Assembly: GCA_903901345.1 (NCBI GenBank)
Contig: CAIUQQ010000330.1
Coordinates: 1 to 55,110 of the forward strand
Length of the DNA stretch: 55,110 nt
Direction of reading: 5' to 3'
Source of the DNA: an uncultured Bacteroidota bacterium
GTDB lineage: Bacteria; Bacteroidota; Bacteroidia; UKL13-3
Made by a program: the position numbers and the translations under genes. Position 1 is the first letter of the stretch. Every line of letters starts with the position of its first letter. This document shows positions 17,083-54,573 of the stretch, piece after piece. The notes beneath the pieces were generated by a model. The model did no database searches, was not told the DNA's origin, and worked only from the letters and a program-made list of their open reading frames with translations.

Positions 17083-17212
17083 GCCTGTAACGTTTTGCAG
17101 CTACCCGAAGGTGGCGATTTTACCACTGAACTTCATTCGGAGAACTACATTTCAAATATACAATAAACTGTCTTACGAAGAACGAATCCGCCACTTTTGG
17201 GTAGATGCTGTT
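17083..17212 (-). repeat. attC-like palindromic site, interrupted by the integrative element (its remaining end is at 39873-39885)
   Basis: TAAC-GTTTT-GCAGCTACCCGAAGGTGGCG...CGCCACTTTTGGGTAGATGC-T-GTT; arms nearly identical to 47059-47184. Confidence 0.85.
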
Positions 17213-17289
17213 GTCATAACCTCTCACCCTTTTTCTTTCTTTTGCTCCTAAACCCTTGTAAAATAAGGCTTTTATCATTTTTACTATCT

Positions 17290-17365
17290 TAATTTGGTGC
17301 AACAAAATGTAACGAAAAGCTTGTTTTGTTATACCTAATGTTGTACCTTTGTACTCTGTTGCACC
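17290..17365. repeat. Left-end integrase arm-type binding repeats
   Basis: GGTGCAACA (17296, inverted), TGTTATACCT (17327), TGTTGTACCT (17339), TGTTGCACC (17357); overlaps the -7 element TACCTTTG (17344-17351). Confidence 0.75.
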
Positions 17366-17394
17366 GCATTGCACAACCCTGTAAAATATTAGAT

Positions 17395-18612
17395 ATGGCA
17401 TCAATCAAATTAGTACTCCGAAATGATAAAGTAGGCAAAGATGGCGAAGCACCTTTGTACCTTAGACTTATCAAAGACCGCAAAACCAAATTCATTTCTT
17501 TAGGTGTTAGGTTAGTTCCAAATGAATGGGACGAAGATAAACAAAGAGTTAAAAAGAACCACTCAAATTCTGCAAGAATAAATGCACTACTGGCACAAAA
17601 GGTTGCAGAAGCTGAAGGGCAAGTTGCAGACCTTGAAAGAAAAAAATCACAGCCATCAGCAAAGAAGTTGAAGGAAGCCATCAAAGGTAAAGATGCAACC
17701 AACTTTTTTGAATACAGCTATGCAAGATGCGAAAAACAGAAAACAACATTATCACCTGCCACTTACCGCAATTACACCAAGTACATCAGTAAGTTTGAAA
17801 AATTTATGGGTACATCAGAAGTCTATTTTGAAGACATCAATGTAACCACCCTTAAAGATTTTGCAAACCATTGTTCCAAAACTTTGAGCAATAATAACAC
17901 TACAATTCACTACTCCTTAACCATCCTTTCCATTATGTTCAAGGATGCACAAAGAGAAGATATAATTCCTACCAGTTTGTACCCCTTTGATAAGTTCAGA
18001 GTAAAGAAAGAAAAGAGCAGCCGCAACTACTTAAACAAAGAGCAATTAGCAGCACTCGAAGCATTAGAAGTTTCGCAATTAGGCAAAGCACAAATTTGTA
18101 AGGATATGTTTTTGTTTGCTGTTTATGCAGGTGGTTTGAGATTTGGTGATGTAATAGAATTGCAATGGAAACATTTTTTAGCAGCAGACAATCGTATTTC
18201 TAAAGTTATCCGCAAAACAGGAAGGCAACACAGTTTTAAAATGGGAAGTGTGGCCATTGAAATACTTGATAAGTACAAGACAAAAAACAGTCAGCCCGAA
18301 GATTTTATTTTTCCAATAATGGAGTACAGCGATTTGTATTTCAAGGATAATTTTTTCAGGTCAAAAGAAACAGAACGCCACAATGCACTAACCAATTTTC
18401 ACCTCAATAATTTTGGAAAGACACTCAAACTTTCGTTTTCGTTGTCCTTTCATCTTAGCCGCCATACTTTTGCCACCAGAGCATTAAACAACGGAATGAG
18501 AATAGAACACGTTTCTAAATTGATGGACCATTCAGGCATAGGCATTACACAGGTATATGCAAAAATCATCAATGAAGAATTAGATAAAGCAGTGGATCAA
18601 TATTTAGGTTAA
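17395..18612 (+). CDS. Site-specific tyrosine integrase (Bacteroidota arm-binding + SAM-like + catalytic domains)
   Basis: N-terminal G.APLYLRL..DRK.KFISLG...P.EWD; catalytic R (GLRFGD), K (IRKTG), HLSRHTFA, MDH, TQVYA; ATG at 17395. Confidence 0.95.
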   Translation: MASIKLVLRNDKVGKDGEAPLYLRLIKDRKTKFISLGVRLVPNEWDEDKQRVKKNHSNSARINALLAQKVAEAEGQVADLERKKSQPSAKKLKEAIKGKDATNFFEYSYARCEKQKTTLSPATYRNYTKYISKFEKFMGTSEVYFEDINVTTLKDFANHCSKTLSNNNTTIHYSLTILSIMFKDAQREDIIPTSLYPFDKFRVKKEKSSRNYLNKEQLAALEALEVSQLGKAQICKDMFLFAVYAGGLRFGDVIELQWKHFLAADNRISKVIRKTGRQHSFKMGSVAIEILDKYKTKNSQPEDFIFPIMEYSDLYFKDNFFRSKETERHNALTNFHLNNFGKTLKLSFSLSFHLSRHTFATRALNNGMRIEHVSKLMDHSGIGITQVYAKIINEELDKAVDQYLG

Positions 18613-18635
18613 AATCATTATTTTTCGCTTTTTAA

Positions 18636-20540
18636 ATGGCAATAATTTCAGATAATAAAATAAACGCATACATCGACAAGCTGCTCAACTTCGTTGATGG
18701 CTTGCCTATGGGCGACAATGGCAAAGCATACATCAGAGCAAAATTATTAGTGGACTTTTTAGACACTTGGCAATTTGATGATGAAGCAAACAGCTTCACC
18801 CTTGAAGAATACCTTGCTAACCCCTCATATCCACGCTTTACAGATGTTCAAACCACCTATGGCATAAAGAACACCACACAAATTGAAAGGTGGTTAGAAG
18901 GCTTTAAAACAGCATTAAAAAAGGCAAGAGGAAAAGCATTAGAAAACCATTTGAAAGAGTTAGATAATTTGCACCCAGCCTTCAAAGCTGCAAGGCTTTC
19001 AAAAAGCCTGGCAGCCATTACCCGAGCAGAACTATTTGAGAAGCATAGTATCCAATCCATCAAAGACCCGGAATGGAACAACCAACTCAAAGAAATTTTA
19101 GGTACAGAAATTACCTTTTCAAAAGAGCAAGCCGACCTACTAACAAAAGCACCGAACCCCCACCAACAAACACCGGCAAGTGAGGATGAAATATTGATAG
19201 TAGAAGAACTTGAAAACCGTTTGGCAATTGAAGCTGTGGAGTATAAGCGAAAGGTTGATGAACTTTGGGAAACAAATAAATTTGACCCCACTTATTTCGA
19301 CAGCTTTATTTCTGGTCCTTTGCTTAACGAGTTTACCAAGTCCGTTTATGAAAGAATTAAGCCATTGAATAATCAGGTTATAAATCAGTACCTCAATTTA
19401 TCCCTGCAACAATTCAAAACCCATACACCACCCAAAAGACATAAAGCTTTTTTGCTTAACTATCATAATACTTATTGGTTCCCGAATGTGATGGAGTACA
19501 AAGAAAATGAGTATGATGCAAAATACGCCACCCACGTTTGGAAACATTACAGCAACCATTTTCATTTATTCAAAGAAGCATTTCAAAAAATTTATGATGA
19601 TTTTAAAACAGGGTTAGTAACAAATGCAGCACCATCAGCAACAACCAAAATCAAGGATGATAATTTCAATATTTTTATAAAGGCATTAGAATATAACTAC
19701 CCTCTGGAACATGCACCGTTAAGTTATTACTATCAATGGCGTGACAACCTTTCTTACCTCAAAAAAGAAGTGTTGAGCAACCTCATTCACTTAGAACAGG
19801 ATGCAAGAAAACCATACATCAACCGCCTAAAGTTTGAATTGAATGAAACATTGCAGCACTGCCATACAAGCCAAGAAGAATTAAATAACCTTTATACAAA
19901 ATACGAAACCAGTGAAGAAGAGTTGCTTCGCAATCGTTCTTACACCAATGCTTTGCACATTGCCATTAATGATGAACCACCAAAGTTTAAAGATACTTTT
20001 GAAGAAGGTTTTAACCCCGATACAGAGAACATTCAACACACCTTTTACAATTTCCATTATGGCAAAATAATTCTTTCAGCACTTGACTTTTTAAATGAAC
20101 AAGCCATTGAATATGGCTTTATTCAGAAAGAAGAAACACCTCCGCAACCCATCAAGAATAAGCCTTCGGCTTTATCTTTTCAATACATTAACCACAATAC
20201 AGGTTCGCAGAACCTTACCGACCTGATGAACTCATTAAAGCGTTCCGCTTTTATTCATCAAGACACATCACTTGCCAATTTCAGAAGTATATTTTCAGCA
20301 AAAGAAATTGAACAAAAAATCATCTGGACAGGCAACATTTCCGAATTGGTACACTTTATCAAAACCTTGCACAACACAGCCAAAAAGGTAGAAGATACCA
20401 AACAAAAGCAATGGGAAATAACAATAAACTGTTTTCAAATGGCTGATGGCACAGAATTAACCAGAGATAAATTAAGGCGTCAAAAGAATGATGATGTTGC
20501 TAAAGCTGCCATCATTGAAAAAGCGGTCAATATTCTCTGA
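18636..20540 (+). CDS. Hypothetical protein; C-terminus resembles DNA-binding regulators found between int and xis in Bacteroidota elements
   Basis: 634-aa ORF; C-terminal F..IF...KIIWTGNISELVHFI..L segment; position. Confidence 0.6.
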   Translation: MAIISDNKINAYIDKLLNFVDGLPMGDNGKAYIRAKLLVDFLDTWQFDDEANSFTLEEYLANPSYPRFTDVQTTYGIKNTTQIERWLEGFKTALKKARGKALENHLKELDNLHPAFKAARLSKSLAAITRAELFEKHSIQSIKDPEWNNQLKEILGTEITFSKEQADLLTKAPNPHQQTPASEDEILIVEELENRLAIEAVEYKRKVDELWETNKFDPTYFDSFISGPLLNEFTKSVYERIKPLNNQVINQYLNLSLQQFKTHTPPKRHKAFLLNYHNTYWFPNVMEYKENEYDAKYATHVWKHYSNHFHLFKEAFQKIYDDFKTGLVTNAAPSATTKIKDDNFNIFIKALEYNYPLEHAPLSYYYQWRDNLSYLKKEVLSNLIHLEQDARKPYINRLKFELNETLQHCHTSQEELNNLYTKYETSEEELLRNRSYTNALHIAINDEPPKFKDTFEEGFNPDTENIQHTFYNFHYGKIILSALDFLNEQAIEYGFIQKEETPPQPIKNKPSALSFQYINHNTGSQNLTDLMNSLKRSAFIHQDTSLANFRSIFSAKEIEQKIIWTGNISELVHFIKTLHNTAKKVEDTKQKQWEITINCFQMADGTELTRDKLRRQKNDDVAKAAIIEKAVNIL

Positions 20541-20545
20541 TTTGC

Positions 20546-20653
20546 ACTCTACACCTTACAAAAAGTTTTAAAAAACTTTCTGCATACATCAAACGCCAGG
20601 CTTAGCAGCTTGGCGTTTTTATTGGCATACTCTACACTCTACACCTTACTCTA
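20546..20653 (+). promoter_or_regulatory. Direct repeats upstream of the excisionase gene
   Basis: ACTCTACACCTTAC at 20546-20559 and 20636-20649, plus partial ACTCTAC at 20629; hairpin AAACGCCA...TGGCGTTT between them. Confidence 0.55.
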
Positions 20654-20740
20654 AACCCTTGTCTGCAAAGGTTTTCAGCCCCTCTTTACTGCACAAATTT
20701 GCTTCCGAAATCATTCATAAACATTAAAAAATAAAAAGAA

Positions 20741-21025
20741 ATGGAAGCAGTAATCCTCACAAAAGACCAGTATCAGGAATTAGTTGTGCGAATGGACGAA
20801 ATTAAGTCCGCACTAACCGAAAAACAGAAAGAACCTAAAGATGTATTTCTTGACAATCAAGATTTCCTTCAACTGATGAACATCAGTAAACGAACCGCAC
20901 AATCTTGGCGTGACGAAGGCATTATTTCATTCTCTCAGGTAGGTTCAAAAATCTACTACCGAATGAGTGATGTGCAAAAGCTATTGGATAGTAATTACAA
21001 CCAAGCATTCAAAAAAAGAAAATGA
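20741..21025 (+). CDS. Helix-turn-helix excisionase-like protein (HTH_17/MerR-like)
   Basis: FLDNQDFLQLMNISKRTAQSWRDEG.I.FSQVGSKIYYR..DV. Confidence 0.92.
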   Translation: MEAVILTKDQYQELVVRMDEIKSALTEKQKEPKDVFLDNQDFLQLMNISKRTAQSWRDEGIISFSQVGSKIYYRMSDVQKLLDSNYNQAFKKRK

Positions 21026-21050
21026 GTATTAACCCTGTAAAGTTTAGAAA

Positions 21051-23105
21051 ATGTCCATCACAAAAGAAGCCATTTTGGATAAAATAACAAGCTATGATAT
21101 TTTAAACCATTATTTACAACCATACCACAACACAGGCAGATTAATAAGTGGTAAAAATATTAGCAACCCATTTATAGCACAAAAACAACAATCACCCAGT
21201 TTCAATATTTTTTGTGCATTGCCTCAACATGAGTGGAGATATAAAGATTTTGCCACAGGTGACGAAGGCAGTTGTTTTGATTGTGTAATGAAACTTTTTA
21301 ATGTTTCATTTCCCGAAGCATTGCAAATAATTAACCGTGACCATTGCCTTAACTTGGAAGCTACATTCAAAACAGTTCCACAACCAAAACAAGCACCACC
21401 GGAACAAACAAAGGCAAATTTTTCTGCAAAGAAAAGGCCATTCAGCGATGCTGAATTAACCTTTTGGAATAAGTACAATATTTCCATTGAAACCTTGCAA
21501 CGCTTCAATGTAGCAGCCTTAGAAGAATTTAGCAACATCAGTAAAGAAGGTAAACCATACACAGTTAAGAGCAGTTCCGAAAAATTCATTTTTGCTTATG
21601 ATAACGCCACTTGGTTAAAACTCTACAAACCGTTAGATGAAAAACAATACAAGTTTCAGTATTTAGGTAATAAAGAGCAGGGTTATATTTTTGGATGGAA
21701 GCAACTACCCGACAAAGGCGAAAAGCTATTTATTACAGGTGGTGAAAAAGATGTAATGAGTTTGGCTGCACAAGGTTTCAATGCTATTTCGCTTAACAGC
21801 GAAACCGCAACTTTAGAAAAGGCAATTGCTGATGAATTGAAACTTCGTTTCAATCACATCATTGTACTTTACGATAACGATGCAACAGGCTTGAAACAAT
21901 CAGAACTTTTAGCAATAACACATGGCTTTAATAAAATCACATTACCTACAATTCCGAATAACGGCAAAGACATTTCCGATTACTTCGCCTCAAGAGGCTC
22001 ATTATCGGCTTTTGATGAGTTGCTTTCAGCTTCGCTTCAAGCACCTCCACCCGAAGCACTAAACCCTGATAAGGTTGTGTTTAATGCAGTAGAATTAATG
22101 GCAATGGGAAACTTAGAACCTCAATACCTCATGTCTCCAATTTTGCCACAAAAAGGCACAGCAGTTTTAGCAGGGAAACCCGACACAGGTAAAAGCCAAT
22201 TTGCAAGGCAATTGTGTATTCAAGTTGCTTTAGGCTTAAAATCATTCATTGATTTTGACATTAATCCTATTCACAGCCGTTCTATTTATGTGGCTACTGA
22301 AGATAATTTAGAAAACACACGTTACTTAATGAGCAGGCAGATGAATGGCTTAAATCAAGGTCCAAAAGACAACCTGCGGTTCATCTTTGCCGATACTATG
22401 GAGCAAGAAGAAATACTGAAAGAATTGGACAACCAACTAACAATAGCAGCAGCCGATTTAGTGGTGGTAGATAGTTTTGGCGATATTTTCAAAGGAGGCG
22501 ACAGCAATAACAATATGGCAATGAGGAACACAGTAAAGACCTTTGATAAAATTGCCAAAAAACACAACTGCCTTATCTTGTTTGTTCACCACATCAACAA
22601 AGGAGCATACCGCCAAGCACCAGGACAAGAGCATATACAGGGTGGTGCAGGGCTAATGCAAAAGGTAAGATTAGGTATTCAGCTTTCTGAAGGTGACAAC
22701 AATACAAGATATTTCACAGTGGTAAAGGGCAACTATTGCCCAAAAGAATACAAGCAAAATTCTATCGTTTTAGATTTTTCAGAAGAAACATTTTTGTTTT
22801 CAAATACTGGTAAATTAATCCCCACATCAGAATTAGGAACACAGCCCAATGAAGATAAAAAGGAAGAAAAGTACAATGAGTTAGAAAATATTGCTCAGGA
22901 GATATTCGGTAACAAGTTAGTGACATACAGCAATTTTGTGAAGCATTTCTGTGAAATAACAGGCAAAAGCATCCCAACTGCAAAAAGAGCACACACAAAC
23001 CTTAAAAAGTTAGAAATTATTGTTGAAGCAAACGGCAGCTACAGATTAGTAAACCCAAGCAGCGACACATTCTCAGAAGATGAAGAAGATGAAAATTCAT
23101 TTTAG
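21051..23105 (+). CDS. TOPRIM primase fused to a RecA-like (AAA_25-type) helicase
   Basis: YKDFATG N-terminus; ITGGEKD and LYDNDATG...KDISDY TOPRIM motifs; Walker A AGKPDTGKS, Walker B LVVVDS, FVHHINK. Confidence 0.9.
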   Translation: MSITKEAILDKITSYDILNHYLQPYHNTGRLISGKNISNPFIAQKQQSPSFNIFCALPQHEWRYKDFATGDEGSCFDCVMKLFNVSFPEALQIINRDHCLNLEATFKTVPQPKQAPPEQTKANFSAKKRPFSDAELTFWNKYNISIETLQRFNVAALEEFSNISKEGKPYTVKSSSEKFIFAYDNATWLKLYKPLDEKQYKFQYLGNKEQGYIFGWKQLPDKGEKLFITGGEKDVMSLAAQGFNAISLNSETATLEKAIADELKLRFNHIIVLYDNDATGLKQSELLAITHGFNKITLPTIPNNGKDISDYFASRGSLSAFDELLSASLQAPPPEALNPDKVVFNAVELMAMGNLEPQYLMSPILPQKGTAVLAGKPDTGKSQFARQLCIQVALGLKSFIDFDINPIHSRSIYVATEDNLENTRYLMSRQMNGLNQGPKDNLRFIFADTMEQEEILKELDNQLTIAAADLVVVDSFGDIFKGGDSNNNMAMRNTVKTFDKIAKKHNCLILFVHHINKGAYRQAPGQEHIQGGAGLMQKVRLGIQLSEGDNNTRYFTVVKGNYCPKEYKQNSIVLDFSEETFLFSNTGKLIPTSELGTQPNEDKKEEKYNELENIAQEIFGNKLVTYSNFVKHFCEITGKSIPTAKRAHTNLKKLEIIVEANGSYRLVNPSSDTFSEDEEDENSF

Positions 23106-23162
23106 TATCAGGTATCATCGGTATCATTTGGCTTAGGGTTTTGAGACTATGATACTTGATAC
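23105..23162. repeat. Iteron-like hexamers, candidate replication origin
   Basis: GTATCA x3 (23105, 23112, 23121) facing TGATAC x2 (23150, 23157) directly after the primase-helicase stop. Confidence 0.55.
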
Positions 23163-23207
23163 CAGAACAAAATTTGTACCTTTGCCATAAATATTTTAAA
23201 AGAAAGA

Positions 23208-23573
23208 ATGTTTAAAAGTGCTCTGCCAGCTAACTGCCCTCCATCAGAAGTAGAAGAACAAGAAAAGGTTCTCTACAGATTGGTTGTGCTTGGTGACCCG
23301 GTAGAAAGTTTTAAAAATCATGTAGAATTATTCCCTGAGAATAAAGATTATCTAAAACAATGCAGGACACATGGTATTTCATTTTTTGATAACCTAAAGC
23401 CATTTGAGGACCTGCTTTCAAAAGAAAATAACACAGGAAAGGCAATTGCAAAAGTTGAAATCAAAAAAAACCACGGAGTATTAACAAAAAAACGTTCTCC
23501 TAAAGGGCATTACACTTTATGGGCTTATGACCATTTCGACCCTGCAACAGTAAATATGGAAATAGTAAAATAA
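23208..23573 (+). CDS. Small hypothetical protein, possible ADP-ribosyltransferase-like fold
   Basis: LPANCPP, LYR, C..HGISFF, GHYTLW; -7 element TACCTTTG at 23177-23184. Confidence 0.6.
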   Translation: MFKSALPANCPPSEVEEQEKVLYRLVVLGDPVESFKNHVELFPENKDYLKQCRTHGISFFDNLKPFEDLLSKENNTGKAIAKVEIKKNHGVLTKKRSPKGHYTLWAYDHFDPATVNMEIVK

Positions 23574-24775
23574 TGATTGACTTTAAGCAATATACAACCA
23601 ATGTACCGTCTTCCCTTTTAAATGGGCTTAGACCGTATTTGCTTATAGAGTTTTATGATTACCCATATTTAACTGTTGATACTAACAATACAGGAACACT
23701 TTATTTAAACTATTATTTGTCGGGCAAAGGCGAAGTTTTCAATCATTTATTAATTGAAATAAGTGCTGAAAGATTGAAAATGCTACTTGCGGGAGATTAC
23801 TCACTTAAACAAGTGTTTGATAGTCCCGAAACGGATGTAATATACCATGCTCAGTTCAATAGGGCTGGTTTAATAGTTGAGTTAGGAATAGTTGAGCTTT
23901 CATTATTTAATGAACTTAATCCTATCCTTGCTGACCATGAAATTGATTATGAATATCAGCCTGAAACTGAAACTGTTGATTTGCAATTAAAATCTGTTCA
24001 AAGGGGGCGGATTTTAGTAGATGTTTATTTACAGGCAAACTCTCTTAAATCTAGTTTAAAATATTGGGCAATTAAAAGTTTTCTTATTCCATTTTCGGAA
24101 TTAGTAAGGACATCACTATTAGATAATTCTTCTCAATACACCAGCCATAATTTAGATAAAAATATAAACTTTGGCATTAATAAATTAGCAATAAATTCAC
24201 TTGCTACAACACTTGAATTAAATTACAATTCTGACCTTTTTGGTAAGTCAAATGAATTAGAAAATATTACTAATCTCTTTTTAGTACTTAATGCAAAAGA
24301 TGAAGAAACATTGATAAAAAGCTTTGATAATTTTTCTCATAAAAAAATAATATCTGAGTACATTAAAGTACTGAATGTTATTATTAAAAATGATGCAACA
24401 CTAAACACAAAAATAGCAGCACCAAACAATTATTTTTCAGAGACATTTATTTCAAAAAAAGAGGCACAGGCGTTAAAAAAAATAATCAACGAAAAGATAC
24501 CAAACGTTGAGGACACAGAAGAAATACAAGGTTATTTGCTTGAATTGAGTTTTGATAAAAGCAGTCCAACTTTTTCAATGTCAGCTTCATTAGAAGATTT
24601 AAAATACAAAGGTCATATTGACGAAACACTTATTAAGCGAATAAATCAAATTGAATTTACCTTCCTTACTAAGGAGTATAATTTCACCATTCATACATTG
24701 TATGTGCCGGAAACTTCTAAATCACCGGAAAAGATTACACGAACGCTAATTGATATTACTGAAATAGCAGAATAA
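23573..24775 (+). CDS. Hypothetical protein (N-terminal EFYDxP motif, DUF6575-like from recollection)
   Basis: 400-aa ORF coupled to the upstream gene by a TAATG overlap. Confidence 0.6.
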   Translation: MIDFKQYTTNVPSSLLNGLRPYLLIEFYDYPYLTVDTNNTGTLYLNYYLSGKGEVFNHLLIEISAERLKMLLAGDYSLKQVFDSPETDVIYHAQFNRAGLIVELGIVELSLFNELNPILADHEIDYEYQPETETVDLQLKSVQRGRILVDVYLQANSLKSSLKYWAIKSFLIPFSELVRTSLLDNSSQYTSHNLDKNINFGINKLAINSLATTLELNYNSDLFGKSNELENITNLFLVLNAKDEETLIKSFDNFSHKKIISEYIKVLNVIIKNDATLNTKIAAPNNYFSETFISKKEAQALKKIINEKIPNVEDTEEIQGYLLELSFDKSSPTFSMSASLEDLKYKGHIDETLIKRINQIEFTFLTKEYNFTIHTLYVPETSKSPEKITRTLIDITEIAE

Positions 24776-24850
24776 CAATTTCCCCTTTATCAAATTGCAC
24801 TTTTTTGCTTTTATTTGACTACTTTTGACAAGTCAAAATTAGTTGAATAC

Positions 24851-25135
24851 ATGAGCTTTGGTGAAACCATACGTAAACAAAGAGAGAGCAAGAAATTACT
24901 ACTTCGGCAAGCTGCTGCCTTTCTTGAAGTAGATACCGCCTTTGTAAGTAAACTCGAAAGAGGTGAACGCAATGCAAGCCGTGAACAGGTAATTAAATTA
25001 GCAGAGTTTCTTGATACACCTGCTGAACCTCTCATTACTATTTGGCTTGCAGATAAAATATCAGATACTATAAACGACAGCAAGGAGGGTGAAGAAGCCT
25101 TGAAACTTGTACTTAAAACCTATAAGAAAAAATGA
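24851..25135 (+). CDS. XRE-family HTH transcriptional regulator
   Basis: MSFGETIRKQRE.K.LLLRQAAAFLEVDTAFVSKLERGER; ATGA overlap with the next gene. Confidence 0.9.
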   Translation: MSFGETIRKQRESKKLLLRQAAAFLEVDTAFVSKLERGERNASREQVIKLAEFLDTPAEPLITIWLADKISDTINDSKEGEEALKLVLKTYKKK

Positions 25136-45796: not shown

Positions 45797-45810
45797 TTGG
45801 AGAAAATTAA

Positions 45811-45844: not shown

Positions 45845-45856
45845 AAGTTAGAATTA

Positions 45857-46351
45857 CTATTTATTTACTACTAATTTCTTAACCGAAATCAAATTGTCAT
45901 CTGCTCTTAGCTCTATAAAATATACACCAGCATTTAAAGATTGTAAGTCTATTTCATATTGACCACTCATTTGTTTTAGTTCAATTGCTTTAATAATTGC
46001 ACCTGTAATTGATGTAACAACTATTTTAGCCGATTTATATGGTTTCACAAATAAATAATCACAAGTGGCAAAATTTGTTGCAGGATTAGGATATAAATTT
46101 AGTAAATTATTGTTAGAAGTTGAATTTTTTGTTTCGCTAACGGTGGTTAATTCACTACCTCGTTTGCCCAAACTACTTTCAATTAATACAGGTCTTTCTA
46201 CATAAAATTCATTAAATACCATACCTAATATAGCCTTAGCATAATATGATGTCGTGGTGCTACTTGTTGCTATGTTTCTGACATTTTGTTCCTGACTTGA
46301 GCTTAATTGAAAAACATTTTTGTTTGCTTTTTTCAAATCTAAAAGCTTCAT
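45857..46351 (-). pseudogene. 3' fragment of a T9SS type A gene; its apparent ATG lies within an attC-like remnant
   Basis: No signal peptide; LYPNPA...GVYFI CTD; the start codon abuts the half site at 46343-46394. Confidence 0.65.
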
Positions 46352-46394
46352 TTAACCACTGAACCGCCAATTTCTTGTAGGTGCTGTTAGCGGT
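46343..46394 (-). repeat. Half attC-like site (one arm only)
   Basis: TTAACCAC...CCGCCAATTTCTTGTAGGTGCT-GTTAGCGGT, homologous to the right arms of the other sites; no partner arm. Confidence 0.75.
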
Positions 46395-46417
46395 TCGTTG
46401 TTTTTTGTCGTCAGTTT

Positions 46418-46996
46418 TCATTTAAGGTTTTCTCCCAATTTTTCAATTTTGTCTAACCATTTTTTTCGTAAGGAAAGTTCTGTGTTTTTTATTGGTCCAA
46501 CATAAGTTACCTTAACTGGCTTTATTCCACAAAATTCCAAAGTGGATTTCTTTAACTGGTTAACGCTTGGTCGCCCAAATGCAAACCAATAATACCAAGA
46601 AGGTTGGTCAAGGGTTGTAATAATATGAGCCGTCCTACCTGCTAATAGTTTGTCCCACCACACAGAATTTTCACGATACTGAAATGCAAAGCCCGGTAAA
46701 AAAAGCCTGTCAATAAAACCCTTTGTTACGGCTGGAAGTCCACCCCACCAAACAGGATGAACCCAAACTAAATGGTCAGCCCATTTGATTTTTTCCCAAG
46801 CATCTAATAAGTCAGGTTCTAATTCTGTTCTTTTTTGGTAACCAAATTGCAAGTTTGGATTGAAAACTAAATCTTTAATCACAATCTCCTTAATATCTGC
46901 TCCTGAAGTTAATGCACCTTTTTTGTATGCTTCGAAAAGTCCAAAATTATAACTATCACTGTTTGGGTGTCCGTTTATGATGAGTATATTTTTCAT
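46418..46996 (-). CDS. NAD(P)H-dependent oxidoreductase (flavodoxin-2 / quinone reductase family), single-gene cassette
   Basis: ILIINGHP, ADHLVWVHPVWWGGLPA..KGFIDR, GFAF. Confidence 0.92.
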   Translation of the reverse strand: MKNILIINGHPNSDSYNFGLFEAYKKGALTSGADIKEIVIKDLVFNPNLQFGYQKRTELEPDLLDAWEKIKWADHLVWVHPVWWGGLPAVTKGFIDRLFLPGFAFQYRENSVWWDKLLAGRTAHIITTLDQPSWYYWFAFGRPSVNQLKKSTLEFCGIKPVKVTYVGPIKNTELSLRKKWLDKIEKLGENLK

Positions 46997-47053
46997 TAAA
47001 TGTATTTAGATTATTTGTCTGTTAAATGTTTACTCTGTCGTCTTTTTACAATG

Positions 47054-47189
47054 ACCGCTAACGGTTTGCAGCTACCCGAAGGGCGGGACTTTTACCACAA
47101 AACTTGATTTGAAAAACTAAAGTTTGATTAACCACAAAACTGTCTTTGGAACACGAAACCCCGCCTTTTGGGTAGGTGCTGTTACAAGC
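47054..47189 (-). repeat. Intact attC-like palindromic site (126 bp from TAAC to GTTA)
   Basis: TAAC (47059)-GGTTT-GCAGCTACCCGAAGGGCGGG...CCCGCCTTTTGGGTAGGTGC-T-GTTA (47184). Confidence 0.88.
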
Positions 47190-47328
47190 TGCCCTTCTTT
47201 CGGTCGTGGTTTGTCTGTCCGCTGTGTTGCTCTGTCTGTGCGGTTGGAAAGGCATACTCTTTTGCAAGCTTTGGCTCGTGGGCTGGCTTGTGTGGCTTGC
47301 AAATGTGTATGACTTTAGCGTTGGCATT

Positions 47329-48990
47329 TTATACTGTCAATTTTTTAATGAGTTCAATTAATTTGGTCATTTGAGTTTTGCCTTCGCTGTCGTCATGCAG
47401 GTTGATTAGTTTAGCTGTCTCCCTTGCTATTAAGTTTTTTGAACTGCTACCAAGTGTTTCAATTGTTTGTTTTTCAATGTCGGCATAGTCTGTAAACGAA
47501 GCTCTCATTGTTGTTTCAAAGTCTGTCCCGAATACACAGAAACGGTCAGAGATTGCCCAAGTGTCAATTCCTAAAATTCCGTCCAGTTCTTCGTCTTTGA
47601 TACCAATTGCTTTTAATGCGTCCTTACGTTTAAAACCTTTTTCATCATCCTTTTTATAGTCGTTGTCAAAGCAAATGAAAGTTGGTATTTGATATAAAGT
47701 AAAAAGTCGCCACCATTTTGCAAGATTACCTTTACCGCCAACTCCTATAATTTCAATTCCAAATTCTGTTGGGTCAAAACCAAGTTTTTCAAAATAAATT
47801 GGCAAAGCCAATTCCTCTGTTGGACCTTCAACAAGGACAATTTTATTTGCGAAAAAACCCGATAAAATATGCGATGTAGAATTGTTTGCATAAAATGGCA
47901 CAATGGTTTCTTCCTTTGTCTTGTGTGGATTAGATGCAGTTTTAAGGCAATGGTTATATAATGTAGTAGCGTTTTGGTTTATGTTTAAAGTAGTTTCGGA
48001 ATCTTTGCGAATGAGATTAATACCTTCAATATAATTCAAGTCCACAAAATAAGGGCTGTGTGTTGTTAAGATGATTTGCAAACCATCTTCTGCCATTTTA
48101 AACATCTTTTTTGCTAACCATTTTTGAGCCAAAGGATGCAAATGGGCTTCGGGTTCATCAAGAATAAATAATAAGCCTTGACCTAAAAATGATTTAGCGT
48201 AAGCATGAGCAAAAGACAAAGCCAAAATTTGTTGCTGTCCTGTTCCTAATTCTTCGTAGGCTCTTGTTTCGCCATCTTCGGTAGGGTGGACACGTAAAGT
48301 TTTAAAGTAGTTACTTGGGTCGTATGCCGAAAAATCAAATGCCAAAGCATGGGTCATGTTAGACAAAACTGTATTAGCAATTGAAGACATATTTTCGCTG
48401 AAAACATTAAACTCCTTCACTTCCATGAATGTAGTTTTAATACTTTCAAAAAATCCTTTTAGTTTTTCAACTCTGGCTTTATCGTCTGTTAGCTTGTCGT
48501 GAAAGGCTTTTGTAACTTTTGACAACAACGTGTATTTTGAAGAATAGCTAAGTTGAAAGTTTAAATTTTGTTCTGAATTTACAACAATACAAAGAAGTTC
48601 TTCACGCAAGTTTGTACTTACATACATATTCTCTCTCCCGTCTTCTGCTTGAATTGCGTTGAAATTATTCTCTTTTCCTTTTTGTGCTTGAAATTTAAAG
48701 CCACCGCAAGAAAATTCAGAAGACCTGCCAAGCCTTGCACTAAAGCCAGTAACGGTTGCCTCAACTATTACTTGGTTATTTGTGTCTCTTTTATAATGGT
48801 CGTAATCCTCAAGTTTTTTATACTTCGGGTGAAACTCACCAAACATCAATTCAATTGCACGAATAATATTTGATTTACCTGAATTATTTTCTCCAATTAA
48901 AACCACAGGTTTGTTTTCAGGAAAGTTAATTACTACTTGCTCTGAAATTGAACGGAAACCTTCTATTGTAATTTGTTTTAGTCTTGGCAT
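47329..48990 (-). CDS. OLD-family ATP-dependent nuclease (ABC ATPase + TOPRIM)
   Basis: GFRSI, GENNSGKS, LGTGQQ, LDEPEAHLHP, TTHSP; TOPRIM VLVEGPTE, GGK, FDND. Confidence 0.9.
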   Translation of the reverse strand: MPRLKQITIEGFRSISEQVVINFPENKPVVLIGENNSGKSNIIRAIELMFGEFHPKYKKLEDYDHYKRDTNNQVIVEATVTGFSARLGRSSEFSCGGFKFQAQKGKENNFNAIQAEDGRENMYVSTNLREELLCIVVNSEQNLNFQLSYSSKYTLLSKVTKAFHDKLTDDKARVEKLKGFFESIKTTFMEVKEFNVFSENMSSIANTVLSNMTHALAFDFSAYDPSNYFKTLRVHPTEDGETRAYEELGTGQQQILALSFAHAYAKSFLGQGLLFILDEPEAHLHPLAQKWLAKKMFKMAEDGLQIILTTHSPYFVDLNYIEGINLIRKDSETTLNINQNATTLYNHCLKTASNPHKTKEETIVPFYANNSTSHILSGFFANKIVLVEGPTEELALPIYFEKLGFDPTEFGIEIIGVGGKGNLAKWWRLFTLYQIPTFICFDNDYKKDDEKGFKRKDALKAIGIKDEELDGILGIDTWAISDRFCVFGTDFETTMRASFTDYADIEKQTIETLGSSSKNLIARETAKLINLHDDSEGKTQMTKLIELIKKLTV

Positions 48991-50477
48991 TCTTCCGTTT
49001 TAGTTTCAAAAGTTTCATTGAACATTGCTTTCATTAATGTTTTGCCATGGTTGTCAAGGGTTTCAATTTCTTGACTTAATTTCAGGCATTTGTTCATTAG
49101 CAATTCAACTTTCTCAATTATTATTTTTTGTTCCTCTCTTGGTGGAAGTGCAAAAACAAAATTTCTTAAATAAGTTTGGCTAATGTTTGGTTGCGACATT
49201 CCCCAAGAATCAGAAATCATTTTTGCTCGTTGTGCCATTAAGAAATAGAACAGATATTTTGTTTCTATGAATTCATTAAAAAAGAAACCGCAAATTGCTT
49301 GGTTTGTGCTTGCATCTCTGTTTAAGATTGAAAGTTTCCCTGCCGTTGCTCCATACATTGCTATTAGTAAAGTTCCTTTTGGAAACAATGTTGCAGAAGA
49401 TTCCTTTAAACCAATTTCGGAAATTTTTTCCTCTGATTCTGCATCCAAATAAGTGTCGGTTAATTCGCCTGATTTGTACCAAGTTATGTCGCCAAACCAA
49501 TAGTTTGCATTTGCTCTTAATGGTGTGCCACCAGAAGTTGTTGAATACAACTCACCAAGTCTGCACCAAATCCAACTTTCAGGTAATTTGAACTGAATAT
49601 CTGATTCTGGAATTGGTTCAACCTCTTTTTCTTTCTTTAATTTCCCTTCTTTAACTAACTTTTGTTTTTCGGCTTTAATACGTTTTAGAAGTTCTGTTGC
49701 AGTTTCAGTAAAAGAATTTTGTTTTCTCCATTCTTTAGTGAGTTTACCATTTATAGCTTCAAGAAGAATTGATTGTTTTAATTGTGATACTAGATTTAAT
49801 TGAAAAGAACTTTCAAGTTCAATTTGTTTGCATTGTTCATAATCAGAAATAGCTTTATCTATATCTGAAATTAACTCTTCATACCCTTTGACATACTCAT
49901 TATTTGAAATTTTTATTGCATCTAGTTGTTTTTCCAAACTACATTTCGGCAGTATTAAAGATTTCAATGTATTTGCGTTTACACTAGGTCTAAATTCTCC
50001 TTCATTTAAAGAAACAATTTGTGACCAATAAACATAGCTGTTCAAAAACAGATTTAAAAACAATGGCTCGGCATCTTCATTTGCTCTGATACGAATCAAG
50101 TAGCCAGCATAAATTGAATGCTCTGGTGGGTCTGTGATTAAAAAACTTTTTCCTGTTGTTCCACCTGTCCTTGCAATTAGTAAATCATTTGTGTAAAGCA
50201 GGTATGTATCTTCGCTATCACAATCGCAGAAAGGAACTGTTTCCCAATCCACTTTCCCGTCCGTAATATCACTTATTCGCAGAAATTTATTTTTACCACT
50301 TAACAATGCAGAAGCATTATAACCGTATTGAGTGCTTTCTATTAGTGATTTTAAAGGAACAGTCTTGTTACTTTCTTCAAATAAATGACGTAAAATAATT
50401 GTATTCCTTATTTGCTTTTTTATTTCATCCTCATCTTTTTGAAAAGTAAGTGGAATGAATTTGAATTTTAAACTCAT
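48978..50477 (-). CDS. hsdS: Type I RM specificity subunit
   Basis: Two TRDs; LKQSILLEAINGKLT..WR, LPESWIWCRLGE, SGGTP, PPREEQ..I. Confidence 0.9.
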   Translation of the reverse strand: MSLKFKFIPLTFQKDEDEIKKQIRNTIILRHLFEESNKTVPLKSLIESTQYGYNASALLSGKNKFLRISDITDGKVDWETVPFCDCDSEDTYLLYTNDLLIARTGGTTGKSFLITDPPEHSIYAGYLIRIRANEDAEPLFLNLFLNSYVYWSQIVSLNEGEFRPSVNANTLKSLILPKCSLEKQLDAIKISNNEYVKGYEELISDIDKAISDYEQCKQIELESSFQLNLVSQLKQSILLEAINGKLTKEWRKQNSFTETATELLKRIKAEKQKLVKEGKLKKEKEVEPIPESDIQFKLPESWIWCRLGELYSTTSGGTPLRANANYWFGDITWYKSGELTDTYLDAESEEKISEIGLKESSATLFPKGTLLIAMYGATAGKLSILNRDASTNQAICGFFFNEFIETKYLFYFLMAQRAKMISDSWGMSQPNISQTYLRNFVFALPPREEQKIIIEKVELLMNKCLKLSQEIETLDNHGKTLMKAMFNETFETKTEECQD

Positions 50478-51901
50478 ACACTTAATTCTTTTAGTAAGTC
50501 ACTTATAATTTGTTGGCTTTTTTGAATTTTTGAAAGTATGTCGGCTCTATTGTATTCAATAACCTCTTCAACAATATTTTGGTTTTTTGAATCTAAATCA
50601 AAGTTTTTAAGGTCTTTGATATTTACTTTCCAAGATAAGTTGCTATCAGTTCTATTATTCCACCATTCAATGATTGGCTTGAATTCATCAAATTGAATGG
50701 GTTTTGTTTTAGAATAACTTTTCTGTCCTTCAGGTAGTTTATGTTCGTAATACCAAATATCATTAGTTGGTGCGCCCTTTTCAAAAAACAAAAGATTTGT
50801 TCCTACAATTGCTGGGAAAAATGTGCTTTGCGGAAGTCTTATTATTGTATGCAAATTGCAGTCAGTCAATAATTTTTCTCGGATTCTTGCCTTTACACCT
50901 TCGCCTGTAATTGAACCATCGGGCAATACGATTGCACATCTGCCATTTGGTTTTAATAACTGGATCATAAGAATCACAAACAAGTCTGCCGATTCTTTGC
51001 ATCTATAAGTTGATGGAAAGTTTGTTTCTACTCCGTCCGCTATGCTTGCTCCAAATGGTGGATTTGCAAGGATAACATCAACCTGGTCTTTCTTGCCAAT
51101 GCTGTTGTACTCTTTTTTTAAACTGTCAATGTAATGATAATCGGGAACATCAATTTCGTGAAGTATCAAATTAGTCAAGCCTAATACATAAGCAACTGGT
51201 TTTAATTCCCAACCAGTTATTGAATTTTGTAAAAGTGCTTCGTCATCAACTGTTTTTACATAAGTATCTCTTACGTGGTCAATTGCCGCTGATAAGAAAC
51301 CGCCTGTACCTGCTGCTGGGTCTAAAACTTTTTCGCCCAATTTTGGGTCGGTCATCATTGTCATTAATTGAGTTACGGCTCTTGGCGTATAATATTCGCC
51401 TTTGTTTCCTGCATCTCTTAACTCCTGCAAAATGCTTTCGTAAATATTTCCGAAAACGTGTTTGTCCTCTGATTTTGTAAAGTCAATTTCATTGAGTTTG
51501 TTGATTACCTTTCGCATTTCATAACCACTTTTCATGTAGTTATTTGTGCCATCAAAAACCTCCTTTACTATCATTGCTCGTTTCGGATTTGTTGAGCTTT
51601 TTATTTCTCTTAGTGATAGAAACAGTCCTTTATTTGTCAGTTCGTTGCTATCAATAAAATTTATTAGTTCATCACCAGTAATTCCTTCTGGATTTGTTGC
51701 CCAATTTCTCCATTGAAATTTTTCGGGAATTACAGAAACATAGTTGTCTTTTATTACTTCTAATTCTTGGTCTTTGTCGTCCATTATTTTAAGAAACAAC
51801 ATCCAACCCAATTGCTCTAAACGTTGTGCATCGCCAGAGATTCCTCTGTCTTGCCTCATTATATTTCTTATGTTGCTTATTACTGCACCTACATTTGCCA
51901 T
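50474..51901 (-). CDS. hsdM: Type I RM methyltransferase
   Basis: MRQDRG.SGDAQRLEQL.WMLFLK, GEYYTPR, LDPAAGTGGFL, ANPPFG. Confidence 0.95.
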   Translation of the reverse strand: MANVGAVISNIRNIMRQDRGISGDAQRLEQLGWMLFLKIMDDKDQELEVIKDNYVSVIPEKFQWRNWATNPEGITGDELINFIDSNELTNKGLFLSLREIKSSTNPKRAMIVKEVFDGTNNYMKSGYEMRKVINKLNEIDFTKSEDKHVFGNIYESILQELRDAGNKGEYYTPRAVTQLMTMMTDPKLGEKVLDPAAGTGGFLSAAIDHVRDTYVKTVDDEALLQNSITGWELKPVAYVLGLTNLILHEIDVPDYHYIDSLKKEYNSIGKKDQVDVILANPPFGASIADGVETNFPSTYRCKESADLFVILMIQLLKPNGRCAIVLPDGSITGEGVKARIREKLLTDCNLHTIIRLPQSTFFPAIVGTNLLFFEKGAPTNDIWYYEHKLPEGQKSYSKTKPIQFDEFKPIIEWWNNRTDSNLSWKVNIKDLKNFDLDSKNQNIVEEVIEYNRADILSKIQKSQQIISDLLKELSV

Positions 51902-51904
51902 TTC

Positions 51905-54289
51905 TTATGCCGCTTTATAAAGTTCGTTTTCCAATTCTTTTAATGCTTGTATGTAATTTTCTTTTCCACCAAAAGCATTAATTATTTCGAGTGGTGAACC
52001 TAATTTATTTAATGGGTCAAGTTTTAAAACATCTAAACTTTCAATAGTGAGTAAATCATCATCTGCGTATTTGTCAAGCAAACTTTTGATTACAGATTGT
52101 GCTTTCTCTCCGTATTTAGTAAAGTAGTTTCTTTTCTTCACGTTGTTTGCTCTTTCCTTTCGTGTCAATGGTTTTGCTTCAAAAGCAACATGACAAATCA
52201 AATCAAAAGGGTCAAAGTCTTTTCCGATTTCTTCCTTTAAGGCTTCAAAGAAAATTCCTTGTTGTTCCAATGCTTCAACGATTGCTTTTTTCTTGTCAGC
52301 ATTTTTCCATGAATTCAAAAAGGTTTCAAGCGTTGCGTATTTTTCAATTACATTTTTCTTGGTGTAATCTTTCAGACTTTCGGTAATTATTCGTCCGTCA
52401 GCACCTAAATATTGGACTCGTTCATTTACAATTTTAACTTCAACACCGTTTACTCTTATTTTTTCTCTTGGATTTGGTTCTGCTACTATAAAACCACCAC
52501 CAATTACAGTTGGATATTCAGGCGTAGGAAAAACGACATCACCACCATCAACCACATCAACAATTGGTTCGTCTGTTACTTCATCGTCTGTTCCCGAAAT
52601 ATCGTCATCTTCTGTAATATCTTTAATCATTACAGGGTCGCCATCAAAATTAGGGTCTGCAAAAAGATTGGTTACATTTCTAAAATCCATTATCGTGAAA
52701 TATGTTTTACCATATTCTTCATTAATTCTTGTTCCTCTACCAATAATTTGTTTGAACTCTGTTGGTGAACCGATATTACTATCCAATACAATGAGTTTGC
52801 AAGTTTGAGCATCAACGCCAGTAGTCATTAATTTTGAAGTTGTCGCAATAACAGGATAGCGTTCACTTGGATTTATAAAACTGTCTAATTCTCTTTTCCC
52901 TTCTTCATTGTCGCCTGTAATCTGCATTACATACTTATTGTTTTGAGCAACCAAATCGGCATTGGCGTTAGCCAATGCGGTTCGCATGCCTTCGGCATGC
53001 TCAATGTCAATGCAAAAAACAATTGTCTTTGCGAAACGGTCATTTCCTTTTAAAAATTCCGTTATTTTTCTTGCAACTAATTCTCTTCGTTCATCAACAA
53101 CAATGCTTTTATCAAAGTCAGTTCTGTTGTAAATTCTATCTTCAACAGGATTTCCGTTTTTATCTAAAAAGCCTTTTGTTGGTCGCCAACCTTCCGCATC
53201 AATATCAAGAGTTACTTTAATTACCTTGTAAGGTGCAAGAAAACCATCGTCAATACCTTGTCTTAACGAATAAGTGTAAACTGGTTCACCAAAATAATGA
53301 ATGTTTGAGGTTTCGGTTGTTTCCTTTGGTGTGGCTGTCATACCCAAATGAGTTGCAGTTTTGAAATAGTCTAATATTTCACGCCACTTGCTATCTTCTT
53401 TTGCACTTCCTCTGTGGCACTCATCAACTACAATTAAATCAAAAAATTCAGGACTGAATTGTTTATAAGCATCATCTGATTTACTGTCTGACAAGCCTTG
53501 ATACAAAGCTAAATATACATTGTAAGCGGTGTCAATTTGTTTGTGTTTAATGATTGTCATGGCATCTTTGAAATGCCTGAAATCACCTCTTGCTGTTTGG
53601 TCTATGAGTGAAGTTCTGTCTGCTAGAAACAGAATTCGTTTTTTTGCTCCGCTTTTCCAAAGTCTGTAAATAATTTGAAACGCGGTATAGGTTTTTCCTG
53701 TTCCAGTTGCCATTACTAAAAGAATTCTGTCTTGCTTTTTCGCAACTGCTTCAATAGTTCTGTTAATGGCAATTTGTTGGTAATACCGTGGGGAACGACC
53801 AGAGCCATCTAAAAAATAGTCGGTTGAAACTACGTTTTCAACTTCTTTGTCTTCTATGCCTTTGTATTTTTTATATTTCTCCCAAAGTTGTTCAGGGCTT
53901 GGGAATTCGTCATTTGAAATTTCCGTTTCAATGTCTCCGCTTGTAACTGTTTTGTCGTGGAAATAAAAACCGTCTCCGTTGCTACTAAACACAAAAGGAA
54001 TGTCCAACGTGTTGGCATAACCTAATGCCTGTTGAATTCCAGCTTTTACTGAATGATTGTTGTCTTTTGCCTCAATGATTGCAATAGGTACGTTTGGCTT
54101 ATAAAACAAAATGTAGTCGGCAAATTTCCGTTTTCCTCTTGCTGTAATTTTACCCTTCACATAAATGCGTCCGTCAGTAAAAAATATTTCACGTCCAAGT
54201 TGAGTGTGTTCGTCCCAACCCGCCTTTGTCACGGCAGGAGTGATAAACTTCTCTTTTATGTCGGCTTCTGATAAGTCCTTTTTGTTCAT
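51905..54289 (-). CDS. hsdR: Type I RM restriction subunit (EcoAI/EcoEI-like)
   Basis: ADYIL...IIEAK, MATGTGKT, DECHRGSA, MTATP, TGVDA, QIIGRGTR, DPFDLICHVAF. Confidence 0.95.
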   Translation of the reverse strand: MNKKDLSEADIKEKFITPAVTKAGWDEHTQLGREIFFTDGRIYVKGKITARGKRKFADYILFYKPNVPIAIIEAKDNNHSVKAGIQQALGYANTLDIPFVFSSNGDGFYFHDKTVTSGDIETEISNDEFPSPEQLWEKYKKYKGIEDKEVENVVSTDYFLDGSGRSPRYYQQIAINRTIEAVAKKQDRILLVMATGTGKTYTAFQIIYRLWKSGAKKRILFLADRTSLIDQTARGDFRHFKDAMTIIKHKQIDTAYNVYLALYQGLSDSKSDDAYKQFSPEFFDLIVVDECHRGSAKEDSKWREILDYFKTATHLGMTATPKETTETSNIHYFGEPVYTYSLRQGIDDGFLAPYKVIKVTLDIDAEGWRPTKGFLDKNGNPVEDRIYNRTDFDKSIVVDERRELVARKITEFLKGNDRFAKTIVFCIDIEHAEGMRTALANANADLVAQNNKYVMQITGDNEEGKRELDSFINPSERYPVIATTSKLMTTGVDAQTCKLIVLDSNIGSPTEFKQIIGRGTRINEEYGKTYFTIMDFRNVTNLFADPNFDGDPVMIKDITEDDDISGTDDEVTDEPIVDVVDGGDVVFPTPEYPTVIGGGFIVAEPNPREKIRVNGVEVKIVNERVQYLGADGRIITESLKDYTKKNVIEKYATLETFLNSWKNADKKKAIVEALEQQGIFFEALKEEIGKDFDPFDLICHVAFEAKPLTRKERANNVKKRNYFTKYGEKAQSVIKSLLDKYADDDLLTIESLDVLKLDPLNKLGSPLEIINAFGGKENYIQALKELENELYKAA

Positions 54290-54453
54290 GTTCTACTTTT
54301 TATTGTCGGTCGGTGCGGTGGCAAAATTTAGCTCTTTTGGTTTTGCGAAGCGTTGGCTTGTGTGTCGGGCAAAACCAAATGTGCTAAATGTGCGGCTGGC
54401 TTTTATGTCGTTTTTCTGTCTGTTCATGTTTACCACTGTCGTCTTTTAGGGTT

Positions 54454-54535
54454 GCTTGTAACTTGTTTATATAGGAATGTTTAACCCTAAAACCTTCCTA
54501 TGTCTATCCAAAATTGGGTTGTTTTAGGAATGTTT
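54454..54535 (-). other. attI-like primary recombination site heading the cassette array
   Basis: Minus strand ...TATAAACAA-GTTACAAGC with no upstream palindromic arm; direct repeats TAGGAATGTTT (54472, 54525) and an inverted copy (54490-54500). Confidence 0.65.
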
Positions 54536-54542
54536 CTATATT

Positions 54543-54573
54543 CAAACATACCTATTATTTTTATATATCCAAA
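54543..54573 (-). promoter_or_regulatory. Bacteroidota housekeeping promoter firing into the array (Pc-like)
   Basis: Minus strand TTTG-N19-TATGTTTG matches the -33/-7 consensus and spacing. Confidence 0.7.

Follow-up and report, generated by a model that had tools for sequence, protein, structure and literature searches.

Integrons are the textbook gene-capture machines of Proteobacteria. Does a member of the Bacteroidota possess a capture system of the same kind? This question is raised by a stretch of 55,110 nucleotides (in the following, the window), which is the entire contig CAIUQQ010000330.1 (C330) of a 3.8-Mb draft genome (414 contigs, 31% G+C) of an uncultured Bacteroidota bacterium. 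Gene blocks on its minus strand are separated by long imperfect palindromes, in which an earlier note, made from the letters alone, had seen a system for capturing and shuffling cassettes at non-canonical sites. Our analysis supports this view. The region between 16.3 and 54.6 kb is very probably an integron-type cassette array without its recombinase gene, similar to a CALIN (attC sites clustered without an integron integrase), and the evidence supports an integron-type system with a non-canonical recombinase and a non-canonical site that is seen here in an integrase-less and decaying state. The remark in the same note that integrons are seldom reported in this phylum agrees with the literature, as far as the accessible parts of the papers cited here go: surveys find integrons nearly absent from Bacteroidetes, and the IntegronFinder 2.0 paper lists only In0 elements from earlier work plus one complete integron in Salinibacter (PMC9024848), while two reviews name Bacteroidota among the integron phyla, with no detail in the accessible text (PMC8618304, PMC9668308). 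We found no account of the arrays described below, or of their recombinase as a cassette integrase, in the open-access literature.

The palindromes measure exactly 126 bp from TAAC to GTTA. Two of them are uninterrupted (TAAC at 47059-47062 to GTTA at 47181-47184, and TAAC at 42647-42650 to GTTA at 42769-42772). The third reaches from TAAC at 17088-17091 to GTT at 17210-17212 and is completed by the A at position 39880 when the element inserted at 17213-39879 is left out. A half site is located at 46341-46394. Every coordinate of the earlier note was checked and is correct. A repeat search groups the window sites into repeat families. An nhmmer profile of the three sites retrieved 17 further strong copies elsewhere in the genome, and one iteration gave 25 matches at E<1e-3 over 14 contigs, several of them at contig ends; in total, the genome contains about 20-25 copies. 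A covariance model assigns 142.7, 120 and 91.8 bits to the three window sites and at most 15.3 bits to anything else in the window, including the truncated site (46271-46397, 11.6 bits).

Read on the gene strand, the sites (126-135 nt) follow the consensus N5-TAAC-A-(19-nt arm)-(~70-nt loop)-(19-nt arm)-AAAAC-GTTA-N5. Across 16 aligned full-length sites, the AAC and GTT boxes are invariant or nearly so, and they enclose a 19-bp stem with compensatory changes, as in attC sites. Pairing is present in 82.1% of the stem cells compared with 71.5 ± 1.7% after shuffling (none of 500 shuffles reached the observed value) and 41-52% in slid controls, and 17 of 23 stem pairs carry compensatory changes, against 10.7 ± 1.6 in shuffles. 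On the strand antisense to the genes, one stem pair is a G.T wobble in all 16 sites and a second in nine of them; read on the sense strand, the same pairs are C.A mismatches. The covariance model likewise scores two of the window sites at 142.7 and 120 bits on the antisense strand and at 11.8 and 7.2 bits on the other. Both folds and alignment reveal an asymmetric spacer beside the R box on the L'-R' side (a 5-nt versus a 1-nt internal loop), and the stem contains a 1x1 G.G mismatch. Single-base bulges are absent from the folds and from the alignment, so that a counterpart of the extrahelical bases of integron attC sites is missing. These deviations bear out the description of the sites as non-canonical. 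A search of Rfam gave no match on the sites, and no T-run terminator tail is present at them.

The strongest statement of the earlier note had been that complementarity exists between the two ends of a cassette and not between the two ends of a palindrome. The six 9-mers quoted in its support all lie where they were said to lie, and the three cassette-level pairs are complementary at 9/9 positions; the ends of the first cassette, for example, are GTTACAAGC and GCTTGTAAC. Statistically, the effect is solid: in 16 adjacent pairs (10 from this genome, six from relatives), the mean match is 5.06 of 6 variable positions, with 10 perfect pairs and 13 pairs reaching at least five, compared to 2.66 ± 0.30 of 6 for random pairing (0 of 100,000 trials reached the observed mean) and 2.45 of 6 for the two flanks of one and the same site (n = 20). 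The homologous sites in relatives retain the property, with matches of 9/9, 8/9, 9/9, 10/10, 10/10 and 9/9. In one relative, a site ending in GTTG is followed by a site that starts with ...CAAC, its own start being ...TAAC. The fourth base therefore covaries with the next site, which locates the exchange inside GTT or immediately behind it, in agreement with integrons, where cassette ends and not site ends are complementary and the crossover lies at G/TT. Metagenome contigs cease to resemble the sites at the box edges (47059, 47184 and 46389).

This pairing bears on the idea that the palindromes are dispersed repeats of the repetitive extragenic palindrome (REP) or miniature inverted-repeat transposable element (MITE) type, or terminators, which spread on their own between gene blocks that are not mobile units. 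The wide scatter of the sites, over at least 14 contigs here and many loci in the complete genome G111, and their terminator-like position downstream of genes would fit such repeats, and another dispersed repeat of 205 bp does occur in the same genomes. Self-spreading repeats would, however, bring their own ends, whereas the flanks that pair here are those on either side of a gene block, not those on either side of a repeat. The orientation of the sites relative to the genes and to a recombinase gene is constant, and the T-run expected of a terminator is lacking. We consider this explanation extremely unlikely.

The recombinase gene in question is represented in the window by a 13-codon stub at the upstream end of the array. 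The stub is homologous to the last ~40 bp of an intact gene in relatives and to a stub of 34 codons in a second array of the same genome. In this second array, on contig C9, four single-gene cassettes lie between umuC and topA; the stub with which it begins shares 88% identity with the C-terminal 32 residues of the relatives' 345-aa protein. Between the stub and the first cassette of the window lies an attI-like site, which contains two direct copies of ACATTCCTA (plus strand, 54471-54480 and 54525-54533) and one inverted copy (54492-54501); the hairpin formed with the inverted copy has a z-score of -2.58. The same layout following the end of the recombinase gene recurs in C9 and in a relative (locus L023), in which an intact recombinase gene, an attI-like site and five one-gene cassettes follow one another; an attI-like site between the recombinase gene (or its stub) and the first cassette is thus common to three loci. 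The attI flank pairs with the first cassette in two of these three loci, at 10/10 positions in L023 and at 9/9 in the window, where the partner is the R'' of the first attC-like site (47k). Altogether, the intact gene is found upstream of, and co-oriented with, arrays at no fewer than 16 family loci, for each of which the listed sites include one within 25 kb, and at no fewer than nine loci in other families or classes, and the strand relation between gene and array is as expected at all 25. The site matches behind these counts are the best 150 of 1,128 and the best 150 of 319.

What kind of enzyme is this? The protein reaches 222.9 bits against NF040815 (XerA/integron integrase), narrowly above the cut-off of 220, and 197 bits against XerD; against TIGR02249 (integron integrase), it obtains 202.9 bits in two stretches, below the curated cut-off of 265. 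Alignment with the structure of Vibrio IntI4 also falls into two pieces, because residues 180-245 of IntI4 have only 24 residues opposite them. The recombinase thus lacks about 42 residues of the IntI-specific insert, and the IntI-specific region near patch III (intI_Cterm) is absent, as judged from the IntI4 alignment and not from the intI_Cterm profile. In IntI4, the segment holds K209, Y210, W219, P232, H240 and H241, which are reported to contact the extrahelical bases (PMC3053210, accessible part). Archaeal XerA aligns to the recombinase without a break and provides the best matches in sequence and fold (4a8e, 5hxy). Foldseek lists XerA first and IntI4 next, a ranking used solely as agreement with the sequence result since the AlphaFold model is poor (mean predicted local distance difference test, pLDDT, 67.5; catalytic domain partly below 50). 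On the other hand, the C-terminus (...YTHV...SPFDDL) resembles that of IntI, and about 70 additional residues at the N-terminus, which match no Pfam family, are modelled as a small strand-helix (beta-alpha) domain (pLDDT 81-87). The protein belongs to a large family, with 8,000 of 8,000 scored candidates passing E<=1e-20; its members are named 'site-specific tyrosine recombinase/integron integrase' by NCBI, and the closest relatives belong to Bacteroidota, Flavobacteriales. Together with a Flavo-1 RNA in the window, these names assign the genome to Bacteroidota. With 0-3 copies per genome, the recombinase gene does not behave like a single-copy housekeeping gene.

These properties speak to two further explanations. 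According to the first, the array is an ordinary remnant of a classical integron (a CALIN) made by a canonical, insert-containing IntI; standard attC models would then find the sites and only the host would be new. The 126-bp length, the AAC/GTT boxes and the end complementarity are all classical, as is the C-terminal motif, and when TIGR02249 was run on 119 family genomes, 72 gave sub-threshold matches and one exceeded the cut-off. This canonical IntI (locus L009, G005:C58:1439-2200) scores 307 bits over model positions 1-254. Yet the 3.7 kb around it contain none of the attC-like sites described here, the stub next to each of the two arrays matches the insert-less family and not canonical IntI, the insert-less family with its sub-threshold TIGR02249 score flanks arrays at 25 or more loci, and the asymmetric spacer is unlike the pair of extrahelical bases that the accessible text describes for attC (PMC3053210). 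A classical remnant is therefore improbable.

The second explanation invokes modules swapped by a housekeeping Xer recombinase on double-stranded sites in the manner of pdif. The pdif modules of Acinetobacter plasmids are flanked by double-stranded cores of ~28 bp with two recombinase arms. The recombinase resembles XerA/XerD no less closely than IntI, and the genome does retain an ordinary XerD (C344) in an ordinary chromosomal context. The boundaries of the units are nevertheless hairpin sites of 126-135 nt with a covarying 19-bp stem and not short dif-like cores of 28 bp; all sites are in direct orientation; pairing of cassette ends over 9-11 bp makes sense only in a folded or circular form; and a dedicated recombinase gene with an attI-like site of its own precedes the arrays. 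Unlike XerA or XerC-XerD, moreover, the enzyme adjoins cassette arrays, varies in copy number and carries both the IntI-like C-terminus and the N-terminal extension. Housekeeping Xer modules are highly unlikely as an explanation.

We return to the integron-type array and to its distribution. Sites are present in 114 of 119 family genomes (17/17 genera). In a phylum-wide sample of 151 genomes, 68 have them (44/89 genera), and those of other classes score just as high as the sites studied here. The recombinase is encoded in 72 of the 119 family genomes and 21 of the 151 sampled genomes, and sites occur in 19 of these 21 recombinase-positive genomes versus 49 of 130 recombinase-negative ones. The content of the arrays is highly variable. 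When a 7.3-kb query was compared with 18 genomes of the same genus, only the sites recurred, and each cassette gene block was found in a single genome. Six relatives of the same genus were examined at the orthologous methyltransferase flank, and none has the window array there (54,590 bases searched for sites, extending 2.4 to 16 kb beyond the flank in five and 1.3 kb in the sixth). The C9 array is lacking between umuC (96-98% identical) and the topA side in both close relatives compared; the umuC-topA gap is 354 and 505 bp there versus 4.7 kb of stub, attI and cassettes here.

If the system works as integrons do, a site would fold through its antisense strand as single-stranded DNA, and the recombinase would exchange one strand at GTT; the partners would be either two sites or one site and the attI-like site. 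Cassettes would leave as circles in which the two flanks of 9-11 bases pair. If the exchange takes place at or just after GTT, the 5-7 bases following GTTA would belong to the next cassette, and in the circular form of that cassette they would consequently pair with its own TAAC flank. What is seen here are only products of such a process, namely boundaries, pairing and variable content.

Several observations weigh against this interpretation. No integron integrase or relative of it was found in the assembly of this genome, so nothing would be active here unless the gene sits in a gap between the 414 contigs. Some sites in the complete genome G111 and in G195 are far from any recombinase gene or in the opposite orientation, with G195 having two further sites on the other side or strand of its recombinase gene. 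Cassettes of 7.4 and 9.5 kb greatly exceed the usual size of integron cassettes. In folding energy, the advantage of the antisense strand is slight and not significant (12 of 16 sites, mean -1.2 kcal/mol, p=0.056), and the 42k site folds no better than its shuffles. Three of the 16 adjacent pairs mismatch (C9 attI/first cassette, C9 10117/10914 and C310). A lake-water metagenome run contains 97% of the sampled words of the genome, and four metagenome runs, searched as assembled contigs only, yielded no circle or junction; the joints observed were short-sided and fit site-to-site similarity in other organisms, which is neutral with regard to excision. Finally, six of the 16 full-length sites (window 42642-42777 and sites on contigs C9, C311, C147 and C58) combine arms of differing types that pair at 10-12 of 19 positions, compared to 12.6 ± 3.0 at random. 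Such hybrid-arm sites are not expected from integron-type exchange and are the least explained feature of the system; we attribute them, as a conjecture, to deletions by homologous recombination in the conserved loop.

The hybrids could also be read as a sign that the mobile unit is bounded inside the loop, starting with an L'-GTTA half and ending with a TAAC-L'' half as terminal inverted repeats, and is moved by another enzyme such as a hairpin-using HUH transposase. Two units on C9 whose arms match across the unit (19/19) would agree with this. Arms match within their own site in 10 of 16 cases (15-19 of 19 pairs), but matches across the unit are limited to two of six, both of the commonest type, which argues against loop-bounded units. 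In relatives possessing the enzyme, only one of nine complete sites is a clear hybrid, and none shows a unit-level arm match (arm sequences judged by eye in a small sample); the gene associated with the sites encodes a tyrosine recombinase and not a transposase. Loop-bounded units are accordingly very improbable. Within the framework of an integron-type array, both recombinase genes being stubs, the truncated and hybrid-arm sites and a foreign element within a site fit the decay of arrays that now appear to be frozen in this genome.

How does the system relate to those already known? The Vibrio cholerae array with its 120-odd-bp repeats is an example of a sedentary chromosomal integron. With such integrons, the arrays described here share tandem, co-oriented and promoter-poor cassettes, each closed by an imperfect palindrome with AAC...GTT boxes, exchange at GTT with complementary cassette ends instead of site ends, attI beside the recombinase gene and a content that varies greatly between relatives (PMC3053210, PMC4889954, PMC9024848; accessible parts), and defence genes among the cargo (bioRxiv 2024.07.02.601686, accessible part). 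They differ in that the recombinase lacks the IntI-specific insert, stays below the family cut-off and has an extra N-terminal domain; in that two extrahelical bases are replaced in the site by an asymmetric 5:1 spacer on the L'-R' side together with a G.G mismatch; in that multi-gene cassettes attain 7-9 kb; in that the site family is common to classes of one phylum and not species-specific; and in that each genome has many small arrays and solo sites. Treponema integron integrases are canonical IntI with the insert that is missing from the recombinase of the relatives. What Treponema-type integrons have in common with the present loci is a recombinase gene upstream of attI and co-oriented with the cassettes (PMC3607928, accessible part). 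As in CALIN, sites occur without an integrase and a pseudogene remnant lies beside them, a constellation reported for 15 of 279 CALIN; unlike the CALIN defined in the accessible part of that work, the site spacing here exceeds the 4-kb rule and the remnant stems from a non-IntI recombinase (PMC4889954).

In short, the system passes the integron tests on site boxes, stem, crossover and attI and fails those on the IntI-specific region and the two extrahelical bases. Cury et al. mention four proteins intermediate between IntI and Xer (PMC4889954), and Smyshlyaev et al. (2021) call the insertion 'not fully conserved' within a group of simple tyrosine recombinases that they term 'integron-like', for whose insert-less members cassette arrays are not described in the accessible part of the paper (PMC8138268). 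The family studied here may be among these insert-less members. Chances are about even, in our estimate, that Bacteroidota hold a second, unrecognised integron lineage, with an insert-less XerA/IntI-like recombinase bearing a new N-terminal domain, a distinct folded site with an asymmetric spacer instead of extrahelical bases, a site family shared across classes, and multi-gene cargo of up to 7-9 kb that includes whole defence systems. Since detection tools require the IntI-specific region, they exclude this recombinase by design, and a second lineage would account for the nearly empty phylum reported by integron finders. If this holds up, the range of integrons would be wider. Should the recombinase prove active, the IntI insert would be dispensable for recombining folded sites, a large pool of mobile cassettes including restriction-modification and other anti-phage systems would have been missed in abundant aquatic, soil and host-associated bacteria, and a living intermediate would be available for the origin of integron integrases from Xer-like ancestors.

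Table 1. Features of the cassette array, the inserted element and the array-distal flank (window coordinates).
Feature	Position	Strand	Remarks
Recombinase-gene 3' stub	54561..54602	minus	13 codons (ISEIKSPIEDLDI*), two stop codons ahead; from translation; remainder of gene missing
attI-like site	54454..54545	minus	Crossover box GTTACAAGC (54462-54454), conserved ATATAAACAA just upstream
Cassette A	47062..54461	minus	7,400 bp; type I restriction-modification and OLD-family ATPase-nuclease (Pfam, PADLOC)
hsdR (cassette A)	51905-54289	minus	
hsdM (cassette A)	50474-51901	minus	
hsdS (cassette A)	48978-50477	minus	
OLD-family ATPase-nuclease (cassette A)	47329-48990	minus	
Doubtful open reading frame (cassette A)	47058-47327	minus	89 aa; runs into attC
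attC-like site 47k	47054..47189	minus	L''/L' arms matched 19/19; z -3.23; 142.7 bits on plus, 11.8 on minus strand
Cassette B	46341..47061	minus	Flavodoxin-like FMN reductase gene (46418-46996) and truncated attC
Truncated attC (cassette B)	46341-46394	minus	Only R'' ACCGCTAAC and L'' left
Region C	42642..46340	minus	3.7 kb; three genes with type IX secretion C-terminal sorting domains (45857-46351, 44264-45796, 43323-44267)
attC-like site 42k	42642-42777	minus	End of region C; arms of differing types, 11/19 pairs; z +1.03
Cassette D, gene part	39880..42649	minus	2.8 kb; three open reading frames of no known family (41422-42588, 40303-41409, 39906-40310)
attC-like site 17k	17083..17212	minus	Last of array, 3' end of cassette D; R' GTTACAGGC; 19/19 pairs; z -2.49; 120 bits
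Integrative element	17213..39879	plus	22,667 bp; 7-bp direct repeat TGCTGTT at junctions (17206-17212, 39873-39879)
Element integrase	17326-18612	plus	Bacteroidetes-type tyrosine integrase (Pfam)
Flavo-1 RNA (element)	36033-36105	minus	Rfam RF01705, 63.8 bits; overlaps a 90-aa open reading frame
Array-distal flank	16267..17082	minus	One gene, type IX secretion sorting-domain protein (16456-16863)

The individual parts of the array are listed in Table 1. The interior of cassette A contains no site above 10 bits when the covariance model is run with filters off. Contigs from other samples run past position 46342, where the attC of cassette B is truncated, with normal site sequence; a copy of the flavodoxin gene in genome G062 has no site nearby. 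The gene part of cassette D ends in the R'' ACACCTAAC (39885-39877), and two of its genes have an 82% identical copy in one genome of the same genus only (G061:C5), beside a short site and in the opposite orientation.

Site 17k is parted from this R'' by the integrative element, which is inserted at the exact L''/R'' junction. Besides its integrase, the element encodes, according to Pfam and PADLOC, an excisionase-like HTH_17 protein, a Toprim/AAA_25 primase-helicase, a DrmD-like SNF2 helicase, a Schlafen/AlbA_2 protein, an N6/N4 methylase, a ResIII helicase, a Ser/Thr kinase and an SNase; the DrmD-like helicase, the methylase and the ResIII helicase make up a DISARM-like gene set. The covariance model finds no attC-like site inside the element. 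Relatives of its integrase are restricted to two proteins (37% identical) in one of 118 other family genomes. The possibility that the element is a giant cassette in reversed orientation was considered and dropped in view of the element's own integrase, its duplicated core of 7 bp and the lack of a site-like end. On the far side of the array, homology to six genomes of the same genus breaks off at ~16266-16326, next to the array-distal flank.

Some minor observations concern repeats. The loop of some sites bears, once or twice, a small nested palindrome (CCGCTAGCTAGCGG-like) resembling a mini-insertion that spreads among sites (G000:C9, 3633-3778 and 6188-6333; G000:C58, 6713-6871; G000 being the genome studied here). 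The dispersed repeat of ~205 bp mentioned above lies at 14769-14975 of the window and has a perfect 26-nt inverted repeat in its middle (14847-14903). It is also found at C9:7354-7554, where it sits straight between umuC and the recombinase stub, at C311:3448-3655 and on C136, C178 and C337, and many copies with 72-86% identity are present in all genomes of the same genus that were searched. Just past the recombinase stub in the window, a tandem array with a 21-nt period and nine or more copies occupies positions 54751-55020 at the contig end, with several frames open; it probably explains why the contig stops there. Proteins bearing type IX secretion sorting domains (Por_Secre_tail, CHU_C) are frequently encoded in the array (16456-16863, 43323-46351) as well as in the conserved part of the contig (134-4996).

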